Origin: Chrysomallon squamiferum
Lineage: Eukaryota > Animalia > Mollusca
Direction: 5' to 3'
NCBI GenBank assembly: GCA_012295275.1
Contig: CM022670.1
Location: 20,832,001 to 20,896,000 of the forward strand
Length of the DNA: 64,000 nt
Shown: one piece after another, positions 28,486-46,406 of the stretch
Layout of the letters: each line of letters begins with the position of its first letter
Position numbering within the stretch: position 1 is the first letter of the stretch
Program-made: the position numbers and the translations under genes
Notes under the pieces: model-generated
Seen by the model: only the letters and a program-made list of their open reading frames with translations
Told to the model about the DNA's origin: nothing
Databases searched by the model: none

Positions 28486-31400
28486 TTAAATTTTCTTTGA
28501 AGACAGTTGCAGTTCTGGAATGGTAAATGTCTGAAAACACTCAAATTTATTCTTTGTTCCAGCGGAATTTTTGGAAGACACACAAACACTTTCTGTCTTA
28601 GAATGTGACATATTTCTTTGTGTATTGTTTCCTTTTTTGTCTGTCAAAACTTCGGTTAATTCTGAATCCTTTAGCGAAATGTCATTAGTCGTTTTTCGTT
28701 TCTTTGGCATTGATAACTCGAGACGTTTCCAAAATTTATCGATCTTTTTACTGTGTTGATCAGATGGCCAAGCGATGTAGGTAATTGTGTCTAGAATGTT
28801 CTTTAAGGTCTCGTCCATGAACTTCCGGTCAGAAGAGATGTCCTGGAGGACTATGGGAATTATTCTCTGTTTCCGCTTCAACATCTCGTGCTGCGCGCGC
28901 TGATACTCAAACCGGCAGAACTCACTCTGGACGTAGCTTGGTGTTAAAATTAGAATGGTTCGTCTGCTTTTCTCCATTGCTTTAATAATATTATTGGCAA
29001 TAGCTGCAATTAAAACAAAAACATTTAAAATTTCGAAATAACCCACAGTCGTCATTATTGTCTCTTTTATATCATTTTAGAATGGCCATTTCCATATTTC
29101 GAAAAAGACATTTTTAACTTTTTTTAAATGATAATGATGTGCAGAAATGTAGAAAGTTGTATAAAGATCTACAAAATATACTAGAACAAAATACTGTATG
29201 CTAACCAAATAAGCTAACGTCACAAACTAAAGTAAATAATAGAGAAAACTACGATTTTGTCACGTACCTGTGTAAAGCTATTTATATAATTATTTTTAGA
29301 ATGGCCATAAAAAGGACAAATTGAAGGCCTGTTCGAGGTGGCGCAGGATGGAGGGCAAATCCAGTCTCTACTAGTGAGCAGAAGAAACGCCACGATATGC
29401 CATAGCGCCGGTTTAATACTGATCAGGAAGGGAAATAACTCCAATATACCTTCTTTATTGCCAATGGAAAACAGAAAGGAATATTTTACGACCACTCAGT
29501 CTGATAAGTTTATTTTACTCTATTAATTAATTCGGGGATAAATCTCAAAAACTCAGTTTAGATTTGAAGATAACGGAATCGCATCCGGCAGTCAGCTTCT
29601 ATTTGTGAAAATATGTATTTATTTATCACTAAATATTTTTAAATTTCATCATTTTAGATTTGGTTTTTAGACTTTATCATTTCCAAAAATATGTGAATAT
29701 AACATAAAACGATACCAAAATAAGAATTAAAAAGTAACAAAAAGAACAAGACCAACCCCATAAACGCAAAAAACAACAACTGCTGTGACAGTAACAACAA
29801 CAATTACTACTACTAATAATAAAACCAATACTACTACTACTAATAAAACCAATACTACTACTAAAACCAATACTACTACTACTATTAAAAACAACAACAA
29901 CAACAACAACAACGATGATGATGATGATGATCATAATCTTACTTTCTCCTGGCAGAAAGTCTCTGAAATGAAGACACAGCTTGAAGTTCATAATCTTCTC
30001 CAGTTTAGGGTACAACGTATGTATTACAAACTGTTCATCTGCTTCTGTTGATTTGTATGAGATAAACGCATCGTACAATTTGTCATCTGAAAATAAAACA
30101 ACAGACATAGACAGATAAAAATATATGTCGTTAGAGAGACTGACAGATGGACTGAGAGATGTATGGTTGTGACACAAAGACAAATATAAAGCCAGGCTGG
30201 CAGACTGATAGACTCACTGATTGAGATGGACTGAATGTCTTAGGCAGACAGATATACAGACATACAGATATGCAGAGAAATAGATAGAGCCAAACAGAAA
30301 TAAATTTTGAAAATTACAAAATAAGTTTTATTAATGCTGAAGCATTTCTTTTTTTTATTATTATTATTTTCTTTCGAACTGTTTAATAACTTATTTCTAT
30401 TCCTTTACTTAACGTTATTCATTTCAATGACTTATAAATTTATCTTTTCCAATAAAATGTTGGGTTTTCAAAAGAAAATGTTGACTTTATAACTGTGAAA
30501 TTTAGCTTTAGGAGAAATTATTTTACTGGTTAAAGTCATGTCTGGTTCATCTGGATATTAAAAATGTTATTGTCGGATCACTGCAGGAACTAAACTACTT
30601 TTGAAGAAATAATTTTATTACGCTATAAAATAGAAAGAATAAAACTTCAGAGAATTCATACATATTATAACAAAAGCAAGTGTGTCAGATATGTAGTTTA
30701 TTTAATTTCTGTTAGATCGTTTTTGATGTTTGTTTTGTTTTTGTAGTCGTTGTTTTTTCTGTTGCTGTTATGTTTTTTATTCTTTTCATTGTTTGTTTCT
30801 TTACTGTATCCGCTACTTTTCATTTATTTTGTTTATTTGCTTACTTTTTTATCTGATGTTTATTTCTTTCTTTGTTTATCATCAGTATCATCATTAATAA
30901 CTAAATAAAAACAAAGGAACTGTCTCACCTTTAATGCTAGATAAAATGAAATTATCCAACGCCCCAAAACAAAACAAAACATTAATTACATGTTGTTTTA
31001 CTTGATTGTTTGTTTGTGTGTGTGTGTGTATATATATATATTCAGTTGGTATTGTATATTTACCTTCGTCTTCAAACGGTTGAAACAAGTAAACTATTTT
31101 CATTATAAATATTTCTTTTCGTTTCCATAGCCAGTATGGCAAAGCTACCAAAATAGTCAGCAGGATGAAAAGAACAAAAATACACGATCCCACGATCCAC
31201 CAGTGCCACTGTGGTTCTACAACTTCTGAAAACCAGCAACAGTATAACTATTAGTAATGTAACAGAAACTCAGTAATGAATTATGTATATAACTGTTTTT
31301 AGTAAGGCTTCTAAAAAAAAAAAAAATGTATAACAGATGGAAATGTGACCATGATAGAATAGTTAATAATAATAAGAAGAAGATGAAGAAGAAGAAGAAG

Positions 31401-44700: not shown

Positions 44701-46406
44701 AGAGAGAGAGAGAGAGAGAGAGAGAGAGAGAGAGAGAGAGAGAGAGAGAGAGAGAGAGAGAGAGAGAGAGAGAGAGAGAGAGAGAGAAGACAGACAGACA
44801 GACAGAGAGAGGGGGAGAGAGGTGGAGAGAGAGAGAGAGAGAGAGAGAGAGAGAGAGAGAGAGAGAGAGAGAGAGAGAGAGAGAGAGAGAGAGAGAGAGA
44901 GAGAGAGAGAGAGAGAGAGAGAGAGAGAGAGACAGAGAGAGAGAGAGAGAGAGAGAGAGAGAGAGAGAGAGAGAGGAGAGGAGAGAGAGAGAGAGAGAGA
45001 GAGAGAGAGAGAGAGAGAGAGAGAGAGAGAGAGAGAGAGAGAGAGAGAGAGAGAGAGAGAGAGAGAGAGAGAGAGAGAGATTGGATGCTCCTGCCATTTT
45101 CACATTTCAGAACTGCCAAAACTGCTAAAACGTATTCAGATCCCTCTGTCTATACTGAATCATACTAACAAAACATCTAACCTAGATCTTTTGATATTAT
45201 CTTCTGACATCTGTCTCCTGTGTAAGGCCAAACACAATTACAGTACTCTTCTTGAGTTGTCTCGTTGAGCTTGCAGATTCCATTTTCAGTACAGTTTCGC
45301 TCACATCTCGTTATGCAGTATGCGCCATAATAGGGCTCATCGCACACACACTTGTATTGGTTTTTGGCCAACAGTTCTTTATCGCAGACTCCGTGGTAAC
45401 AAACAAAACCGTCACAGCTTCGCTCCGAAAGGGGACGGAGTGTCGGAGTCGTAACCTAAACCAGAAATAATCGATAGATTTAACTATTGTGACTTTAATA
45501 TTTAAATTACTGAAGAATAAGAACAATTGGAACAAAGACAACATTATGAGTGTAAATTGTTAAATTTACTTCGTTTCCTCACACCCTGCTGTGGGTTCTG
45601 TTATGACTGATGTGTATGTAATTTTATCACCTGGAAAGAATTAACTTTGCAATAATAATAATAATAATAATTAAATAAAAAATAATTTTAAAATTAATTT
45701 TAACATTATAAAGAGTTATGCATTTGTTCAAAAGATGTTGTCAAATAGAAAACATCACGCCGAAACTAATTAAAATAAGTTGAAACTCACTCACCAGAGA
45801 AAGAAACGTCGTCGTGGTGATGGTGACATTGTCGACGTTGTCCTGCTGCGTTTCGCAGTAATCTCCAGTGTAATTTTGTAGACAAGCACATCTGATTTTA
45901 CATGACGACATGAACACACACGTCCCGCCATTCAAACACACAGAACTCATCAACTTACACAGGTTCAAACCACGGCACGTCGTTGTGTCTGGCGTCGTTG
46001 AATTGGTCGGCAGAACTATATTACTTGCAGATGACGTCGATGACGGTGTATCTTCATTTGCTGACGACAAAGACGTTACTGTTGATGATTTCGAAGATGT
46101 CGATTCCTGAATGAGTGATGTCTGAACACTGGTGTTCACTGATAATGATGATGTTGTTGACAATGTCGTCGACGACATCTCGTTCTTCTCGCAGGATGAT
46201 CCTGTATACCCAGGAACACATTCACATTTTATAGTACACGAGGTCCAGTTAAACACACAAGTTCCATCGTTTAAACAAGCAGACGAGAAATCACAGTAAT
46301 TAAAATTACACACGGGATTTGACTGACGTTTTTCTCTTTGTGCCGAAATTCTATTGACACCAGTCAAAAACATGACAGAAAACACAAGTATCAAGCTGAA
46401 CTCCAT
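38741..46406 (-). CDS. EGF-TM-TIR receptor 2, 622 aa: signal peptide, furin-type REKR, 4 EGF-like repeats (first two 8-Cys) with S/T stalks, TM, TIR domain, acidic C-tail
   Basis: Five exons: 46406-45795, 45455-45182, 44345-44190, 41603-41460, 39423-38741 (phases 0,1,1,1; 1869 nt open). The 144-nt exon is absent from the ORF track and reads [47 protein letters not shown]. It has the same length and splice positions as in receptor 1. Confidence 0.93.
44600..45080. repeat. (GT)n plus a roughly 380-bp interrupted (GA)n microsatellite in receptor 2 intron 2
   Basis: Direct reading. Source of the ER/SL-repeat ORFs. Confidence 0.95.

Follow-up and report, generated by a model that had tools for sequence, protein, structure and literature searches.

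An old pair of EGF-TM-TIR genes in Chrysomallon squamiferum: members of an uncharacterised lophotrochozoan family with a putatively IL-1R-like gene structure

Animal membrane receptors with a TIR domain are taught as two types, the Toll-like receptors (TLRs) with leucine-rich repeats (LRR) and the interleukin-1 receptors (IL-1Rs) with immunoglobulin (Ig) domains. The main molluscan survey, by Gerdol et al. in 2017, may already describe EGF-TIR proteins as receptors. EGF-TIR was a counted category in a figure legend on Crassostrea gigas (PMC4346834), and two EGF-TIR genes of Aplysia, LOC101855416 and LOC101856027, were listed among adaptors with their function stated as unknown (PMC9334734). 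Here we describe two neighbouring genes, A and B, in a window of 64,000 nucleotides (nt) of the mollusc Chrysomallon squamiferum (GenBank assembly GCA_012295275.1, contig CM022670.1, positions 20,832,001 to 20,896,000); all positions below are those of the window. In the excerpts of the two surveys the EGF-TIR entries were counted only, with no mention of a transmembrane (TM) segment, an EGF-pair core, gene structure or phylogeny, and they are likened to A and B by description, as mollusc proteins that hold EGF and TIR together. Non-canonical molluscan TIR proteins were described elsewhere as diverse and mostly uncharacterised, with EGF unmentioned in the excerpts (PMC10279657, PMC12521104, PMC8662601), and the excerpts of PMC10903818, PMC5549309, PMC6321704, PMC5094078, PMC11103948, PMC7308585 and PMC6043800 held nothing on an EGF-TIR family. 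A and B are new members of this catalogued, uncharacterised lophotrochozoan EGF-TM-TIR family; what appears to be new is the position of the TIR domain outside the sampled TLRs and a phase-1 intron directly after its BB loop. We tentatively read A and B as IL-1R-style receptors or co-receptors that would cluster on a conserved host protein, recruit a MyD88-type adaptor and activate NF-kB, a reading that we hold possible without calling it probable.

The models of both genes were built from a six-frame reading of the window and inspection of splice sites, and gave stop-free translations. Gene A (five exons, 1869 nt coding, 622 aa, four EGFs) and gene B (seven exons, 2241 nt coding, 746 aa, eight EGFs) both lie on the minus strand, 3407 nt apart. 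All 10 introns had GT-AG borders with pyrimidine-rich acceptors, nine were in phase 1 (gene A intron 1, in phase 0, being the exception), and the three introns flanking the TM and TIR segments occupied matching positions in the two genes. The predicted order in both proteins was signal peptide, EGF modules and stalks, TM, TIR, each with a hydrophobic N-terminus and one strong TM segment. Pfam was run exon by exon, and its scores refer to single exons. EGF-type families matched all six ectodomain exons, five above the curated cut-off and gene A exon 2 below it, and the TIR domain was found on all four TIR exons (E 1.9e-11 and 2.2e-15 for the last exons, 4e-4 for the short first halves). No LRR or Ig family was found on any exon of A or B by Pfam or by a motif check, and the stalks contained 36-61% Ser+Thr. 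Between A and B, 124 of 199 residues of the TM-TIR part (62%) were identical, and the BB loops read RDFIPG in A and RDFLPG in B, the Pro being kept in both. An earlier note on this DNA had described two spliced genes of these lengths, with EGF repeats on Ser/Thr-rich stalks, no LRR or Ig domains, a conserved TM-TIR half with matching introns, and these EGF counts and BB loops; the rebuilt models reproduced all of this, end points included, and the EGF+TIR architecture it credited to molluscan surveys is indeed in them (PMC4346834, PMC9334734).

The closest named relative, the snail Gigantopelta aegis, has separate full-length orthologues, P0001 of gene B (8 EGFs) and P0330 of gene A (4 EGFs), on contig sequence of equal length, and EGF-like and TIR domains, by which the surveys class EGF-TIR, stand in one protein in A, B, P0001 and P0330. 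Identity between B and P0001 was 92% in the TIR domain, 88% in the TM and juxtamembrane segment, 62-84% in the EGF pairs and 29-39% in the stalks, and between A and P0330 it was 98% in the TM and juxtamembrane segment, 87% in the TIR domain and 60-70% in the EGFs. In the tree, gene A was sister to Haliotis P0050 (95/92) and gene B to P0001 (100/97). The one-to-one orthologues indicated that A and B are old paralogues and no fresh expansion, and since the difference of four versus eight EGFs is kept in Gigantopelta, the pair offers no evidence of ongoing diversification; the earlier note's proposal of a diversifying receptor family thus draws no support from A and B. That the TM and juxtamembrane segment was the most conserved part of gene A would suit a signalling half of a two-part receptor, which has no ligand of its own, pairs with LRR-only or lectin receptors and donates the TIR domain. 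Such a division has been proposed for Hydra, which pairs an LRR protein with a TIR protein (PMC7308585), and abalone has a TM+LRR protein without TIR (PMC11103948). However, molluscs own many complete TLRs (PMC4346834), and conserved, long, multi-module ectodomains exceed the needs of a passive partner, and we regard this arrangement as quite unlikely.

It is barely conceivable that the genes are artefacts of modelling in which the EGF exons and the TM-TIR exons belong to separate genes. The RNA runs X2-X4, which matched the window almost only on repeats, would allow for it. Both genes, however, form an in-frame GT-AG chain with collinear orthologues, and the exon chain is not due to chance because the independently annotated P0001 and P0330 share it. 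In addition, locus L001, a contig of 1468 nt, read from EGF pair through TM to TIR without a break in frame, as would be expected of a spliced transcript from a relative, and Logan/ENA proteins such as P0032, P0043 and P0045 showed uninterrupted EGF, TM and TIR on contigs that, at 1.9-3.0 kb, hardly exceed the coding sequence in length. From the orthologues and these spliced relatives, A and B are probably spliced as modelled.

A search with the last exon of gene B retrieved 62 proteins from 478 candidates, and one with the last exon of gene A retrieved 35 from 55. A full scan with Dreissena P0011, in which the best 150 clusters overall were listed and 30 hits looked up by name, yielded 116 clusters with an E of 1e-30 or lower. 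The named members came from many gastropods and bivalves, Octopus, Argonauta, Capitella and Lingula, and the family thus ranges over gastropods, bivalves, cephalopods, an annelid and a brachiopod. In the ESM Atlas, the matches to the TM-TIR part were a 65-member, mainly molluscan TIR cluster, followed by TLR and IL-1R clusters. By a strict pattern, an EGF pair lay at most 45 aa from the TM segment in 71 of 83 full TM-TIR proteins (non-LRR, non-Ig proteins with TM, TIR and an ectodomain of at least 100 aa, after removal of six near-identical oyster records and partial sequences), and most of the 12 misses showed the pair by eye, with longer loops or missing cysteines. The core of the family is a membrane-proximal EGF pair, a TM segment and a TIR domain.

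The ancestry of the TIR domain was examined in two trees, a quick one with 165 TIR rows and a careful one with 69 rows picked by hand, of which 65 came from the quick tree and 4 from the 120 fish IL1RAP listed. Both trees set the sampled TLRs apart. The careful tree is unrooted, with bootstrap not fully settled, and covers one vertebrate IL-1R subfamily and those TLRs among the best 150, with no MyD88 or SARM. All 20 sampled TLR rows fell on one side of a 99/93 branch. Opposite them stood every TM-TIR row of EGF or Ig type: the EGF family, Ig-TIRs of mussels and of crinoids, the Ig-EGF and Ig-EGF-HYR receptors of hemichordates, the Lingula Ig protein P0122 and fish IL1RAP. A constraint that placed A, B and three orthologues among the TLRs was rejected by the approximately unbiased (AU) test (p-AU 0.016), the group having been picked after the tree was known and the constraint also splitting the EGF-TIR family. 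The placement of the TIR of A and B outside the sampled TLRs was thus supported, which suggests that it is not a TLR domain. The next-nearest TIRs outside the family belonged to Ig-bearing receptors of mussels, hemichordates, crinoids and Lingula, and a 91/95 branch parted the hemichordate Ig-EGF and Ig-EGF-HYR receptors from the lophotrochozoan family, with the TLRs on the hemichordate side. A single clade of all Ig-bearing TM-TIRs was not rejected (p 0.076), and several placements of the nearest sister group appear compatible with the AU tests. Mussel Ig-TIRs adjoined a mussel EGF-TIR (95/81), a hint at an EGF-to-Ig swap in mussels that hangs on this single branch, since an EGF-only clade without mussel Ig-TIRs was not rejected (p 0.23). 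Among these neighbours, P0109, P0111, P0116, P0123, P0127, P0132, P0140 and others are hemichordate type I proteins, named "uncharacterized" where looked up by name (P0123 aside), with Ig-EGF-TM-TIR or cadherin-Ig-EGF-HYR-TM-TIR layouts, and Lingula P0122 has a Cys-rich N-terminus, a Pro/Thr stalk, an Ig-like domain, TM and TIR; these add further kinds of ectodomain to a related TIR.

An intron in phase 1 just past the BB loop is taken here as a trait of IL-1R genes at large. In both A and B, the TIR domain is interrupted by a phase-1 intron directly after the BB loop. Eleven of 73 metagenome TIR loci broke at this point: a phase-1 GT donor followed the BB loop in nine and a matching AG acceptor was read in nine, the donor in nine loci and the acceptor alone in two more giving the 11 (L003 and L004 being near-identical, and the ectodomains lying mostly off the contigs). 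All 19 LRR-bearing loci were without the intron and had LRRs and TIR in the same unbroken frame, and a further 43 loci, including L001 and another multi-exon TIR family, spanned the BB loop with no LRR motif in that frame. In addition, 15 predicted proteins start inside the BB-loop intron. A different, expanded multi-exon TM-TIR family (L037, L041, L043, L044, L046, L047, L049, L050, L052-L062, L066, L071-L073) broke near profile positions 62 and 120 and not at the BB loop. Human IL1RAP switches its last exon (exon 12/12b) within the TIR domain (PMC9213720). The identity of fish IL1RAP to the human alternative form fell right after the BB loop, and IL1RAP appears to have an intron at the same point as A and B; no genomic DNA of fish IL1RAP was found in the metagenome scan. 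Gene structure is evidence independent of the tree. Taken with it, A and B would be neither TLRs nor, by their ectodomain, IL-1Rs, and IL-1R-like in gene structure. The earlier term "non-IL1R" therefore fits the ectodomain without Ig, while the ancestry remains compatible with IL-1R kinship.

The repeating unit of the ectodomain was an EGF pair with 12 invariant cysteines, not a single EGF, and the same exon encodes its stalk. Exons 2-4 of gene B are phase 1-1 cassettes of stalk and EGF pair, and ectodomain length may have been set through duplication of such cassettes. Gene A has one EGF pair beside the membrane and two single Notch-type EGFs, each with a consensus that we take to be one for O-fucose; the layout of its exon 1 was repeated in P0330 and P0050. 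A RxKR furin-like motif at about 46340-46326, directly after the signal peptide of gene A, was also kept in these two proteins. The best Pfam matches of gene B exon 2 were Jagged/Delta-type EGF models. The AlphaFold model of exon B4 showed two EGF folds with a short helix ahead of them (predicted local distance difference test, pLDDT, 82.9), and its EGF pair returned generic EGF matches only (Foldseek best E 4.9e-4 with a template-modelling score of about 0.27; best Z 4.8). A specific kinship of the pair with Delta/Jagged, teneurin or SCARF1 was considered and dropped as unsupported, the fold matches being generic.

EGF-repeat scavenger and phagocytic receptors, such as SCARF1, Draper/MEGF10 and Eater, bind microbial surfaces or dying cells. 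By analogy, the EGF pairs of A and B could recognise such surfaces directly, with the TIR domain converting binding to NF-kB signalling, an alternative that we consider somewhat unlikely. Multivalent binding would be well served by repeated modules on long stalks, EGF number is variable, bivalves hold local paralogue sets, and SCARF1 was among the few solved chains aligned over both EGFs (Z 4.1, root-mean-square deviation 3.4, 62 residues). However, that Z lies within background, a PEAR1-type EGF model scored far below its cut-off and an EMI domain was not found (15.6 bits against 37.5; no EMI match in A or B by Pfam), and the EGF pairs are well conserved between orthologues. Variation bore on both sides. 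Run X1 covers introns and behaves as DNA, presumably from another individual or a close relative. In it, exon B3 showed six changed and three silent codons and a 48-nt in-frame stalk insertion, as such recognition might produce, yet five of the six changes lay in the stalk, and exon B4 had one change in 354 nt. Exon B3 carried 10 listed substitutions in 420 nt versus one in 607 nt of the TIR exons (p 0.0009), counted from 40 listed of 136 rows, with up to five unlisted differences that may be exonic; this gives a weak hint and no more.

On the inner side of the membrane, a model of the Patella relative P0009 contained EGF pairs, helices for the TM and the juxtamembrane segments, and a TIR fold about equally close to the structures of TLR1, IL-18Rbeta and IL-1RAcPb. 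A homodimer prediction for its residues 135-430, made without an alignment, scored 0.00 and speaks neither for nor against a dimer. We consider it very improbable that the TIR domain is an enzyme that cleaves nicotinamide adenine dinucleotide when clustered, and not an adaptor scaffold. All 47 aligned family rows had a Glu in helix C, at what we assume to be the catalytic position in SARM1, but human TLR1 and TLR6, to our knowledge non-enzymatic, carry Glu at the same aligned position, and SARM1 and TIR-STING structures matched less well than those of TLRs and IL-1Rs.

For A and B as IL-1R-style receptors, the following sequence of events is proposed. Once spliced, the genes would give type I membrane proteins whose outer part carries EGF modules on Ser/Thr stalks and whose inner part holds the TIR domain; the stalks, O-glycosylated, would act as spacers keeping the modules off the membrane. 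The membrane-proximal EGF pair may bind a host-derived protein ligand or partner, the conserved TM/juxtamembrane segment may aid clustering and join the TIR domains, and the BB loop would recruit MyD88, leading to NF-kB output. The earlier note, too, had proposed a link from EGF- or glycan-type recognition to MyD88/NF-kB, which stays a putative one. Loss of the BB-loop Pro abolished TLR4 signalling (PMC9213720), and oyster TLR signalling to NF-kB needs oyster MyD88 and its BB loop (PMC3788107). A host protein ligand is favoured on the grounds that the two paralogues are old, have stayed stable and are conserved except in their stalks; a conserved ligand agrees with conserved ectodomains and low copy number (two in Aplysia; PMC9334734) more readily than does a hypervariable sensor of pathogens. 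Bivalves have been reported to possess IL-1-like cytokines, tied there to Ig-type receptors (PMC12338702); these cytokines are a candidate ligand for EGF-TIR.

Several observations weigh against this proposal. The best pairwise matches among solved TIRs were TLR1/6/2/10 (TLR1/6 at the top), ahead of IL-1R members; this is the side of the earlier label "TLR-like TIR" that stood, whereas the tree and the BB-loop intron spoke otherwise. Fish IL1RAP sat on a long branch (placement support 42/31), with no supported grouping with the EGF-TIR family, and a split of EGF-TIR plus TLRs from deuterostome Ig-TIRs was not rejected (p-AU 0.42). The generic fold matches of the EGF pair indicate no ligand class. 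Bivalves hold several paralogues, EGF number ranges from about 2 to 13 and stalks vary; these paralogue sets and this range would also fit pathogen-facing variation, as might, weakly, the variation of the third stalk of gene B in X1. Neither A and B nor their orthologues showed a TRAF6 motif in the tail, and two of 75 family tails have one. To these are added the near-confinement of RNA matches to repeats and the open literature searched, in which no functional study, ligand or function for EGF-TIR was found, as the earlier note had said. Lastly, the BB-loop position held Pro in 66 of 104 family rows, another residue in 26, and was unmatched in 12; the Pro that the note had stressed is thus present in A and B and not invariant, and since another residue stands there in some members, MyD88 may not serve all of the family.

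The same loss of Pro would agree with a decoy or brake, a membrane TIR protein like SIGIRR or IL-1RAcPb that ties up adaptors and lowers TLR signalling, for which a variant IL-1R TIR unable to activate NF-kB is a precedent (PMC9213720). Isoforms without the TM exon are also annotated: the pairs P0100/P0325 (Mytilus californianus) and P0118/P0201 (Octopus sinensis) differ by exactly that exon (55 and 56 aa), and such a TM-less EGF-TIR form, shared by two classes, may either serve as a regulated decoy or stem from faulty annotation. A and B, however, keep the Pro, and their TIR domain is strongly conserved over its full length, which leaves a braking role improbable for them.

The IL-1R-style reading can be widened. 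The family may represent a third class of animal surface TIR receptor, built on a TM-TIR chassis of IL-1R lineage on which phase-1 cassettes swapped EGF, Ig and HYR ectodomains; the EGF-pair form would be the cytokine-receptor system at work in Lophotrochozoa, with invertebrate IL-1 proteins or an EGF-binding host signal as possible ligand, and mussel Ig-TIRs would stem from an EGF-to-Ig swap independent of vertebrate IL-1Rs. We regard this wider scheme as unlikely in its entirety; that Ig-TIR arose more than once has been thought before (PMC5094078).

Table 1. Positions of the exons of genes A and B and of a truncated gene B copy in the window.
Feature	Positions	Strand	Content and support
Gene A exon 1	45795..46406	-	Signal peptide, RxKR furin-like motif, two single Notch-type EGFs split by a Ser/Thr stalk; PF00008 E 1.1e-6
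Gene A exon 2	45182..45455	-	Membrane-proximal EGF pair; 12 Cys invariant with gene B pairs
Gene A exon 3	44190..44345	-	TM helix and juxtamembrane segment, phase 1-1; 98% identity to P0330
Gene A exon 4	41460..41603	-	TIR first half, ending just past the BB loop; Pfam
Gene A exon 5	38741..39423	-	TIR second half, 125-aa tail, stop; Pfam
Gene B exon 1	34922..35333	-	Signal peptide, stalk, EGF pair 1; Pfam
Gene B exon 2	34440..34670	-	EGF pair 2, phase 1-1 cassette; PF21795 E 3.3e-10, PF21700 E 1e-9, PF07974 E 4.6e-11
Gene B exon 3	33612..34031	-	Long Ser/Thr stalk and EGF pair 3, phase 1-1 cassette; stalk variable in run X1
Gene B exon 4	32049..32402	-	Stalk and membrane-proximal EGF pair, phase 1-1 cassette; model pLDDT 82.9; 84% identity to P0001
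Gene B exon 5	31064..31225	-	TM helix and juxtamembrane segment
Gene B exon 6	29943..30086	-	TIR first half, ending just past the BB loop; Pfam
Gene B exon 7	28486..29003	-	TIR second half, 70-aa tail, stop; Pfam
Truncated gene B copy	17721..19806	-	End of exon 1, exon 2 and start of exon 3 fused to end of exon 7

The truncated gene B copy is without start, TM and TIR, lies inside a local duplication of about 10 kb and is probably non-functional. Its segment 17721-18793 was 94% identical to 27496-28566 and its segment 18792-19806 was 91% identical to 33989-35023; the joint, 28564-33989, was also present in run X1. In a local duplication of about 10 kb also lie two copies of a DXD glycosyltransferase gene (PF04488) on the minus strand, 11535-13793 and 22705-24830, the second of which has a frame change near 22881-22995 and may be broken or mis-assembled. 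On the plus strand, 6450-8678 is a 743-aa open frame with a signal-peptide-like start and one weak EGF (E 0.008), the rest being long Ser/Thr- and Asn/Asp-rich low-complexity sequence, and it looks like a secreted mucin-like protein. Also on the plus strand, one or two genes at 53518-63333 have exons that encode a MAM domain and a C-type lectin domain, together with a TM-like segment near 55960. The glycosyltransferase, secreted EGF and MAM/lectin genes were rejected as partners of A and B, adjacency being all that links them. Within gene B intron 2, about 34089-34345, lies a high-copy repeat whose summed depth in X1 reached tens of thousands, against about 50 in its flanks, and which also occurred in the RNA runs.

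A conserved EGF type in molluscs, an annelid and a brachiopod gives invertebrate immunology a ready orphan receptor family, which bears on the repeated origin of Ig-TIR receptors and on the receptors used by molluscan cytokines. In databases the family goes unrecognised, since automatic naming labels it wrongly (PEAR1-like, draper-like, Notch-like, TLR4, TLR13). The orthologue names "PEAR1-like" and "draper-like" arise because SCARF1 and Draper/MEGF10/PEAR1, like A and B, are type I membrane proteins with tandem compact EGF repeats; unlike Draper/MEGF10/PEAR1, A and B have a TIR domain instead of a tyrosine-motif tail, and mucin-like stalks split their EGF pairs. The DSL domain of Notch ligands had no match in A or B by Pfam, and Jagged/Delta-type EGF models passed their cut-offs on exon B2 only. 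An assignment to the cytosolic TIR adaptors (MyD88, SARM), defined by a death or ARM/SAM domain without TM, was rejected from Pfam and TM prediction. The hemichordate Ig-EGF-TM-TIR and cadherin-Ig-EGF-HYR-TM-TIR proteins (P0109, P0116, P0140) share with A and B EGF-type modules, a related TIR domain and the type I orientation, but carry Ig or HYR beside the membrane and not an EGF pair. TLR1/2/6/10 and the molluscan P- and V-type TLRs resemble A and B in having a single TM followed by TIR, a BB-loop Pro and the best pairwise scores, whereas A and B have no LRR, have a TIR domain split by introns and stand outside the sampled TLR group. The IL-1R family (IL1RAP, IL-18R, IL1RAPL, SIGIRR) and the invertebrate Ig-TM-TIR proteins differ from A and B in that the latter have no Ig domain, bear EGF pairs on Ser/Thr stalks and are closer to TLRs in the helix-C region; yet both are type I TM-TIR proteins of multi-exon genes, with a similar TIR first half, a place on the non-TLR side of the tree and a phase-1 intron after the BB loop, direct in A and B and indirect for IL1RAP.

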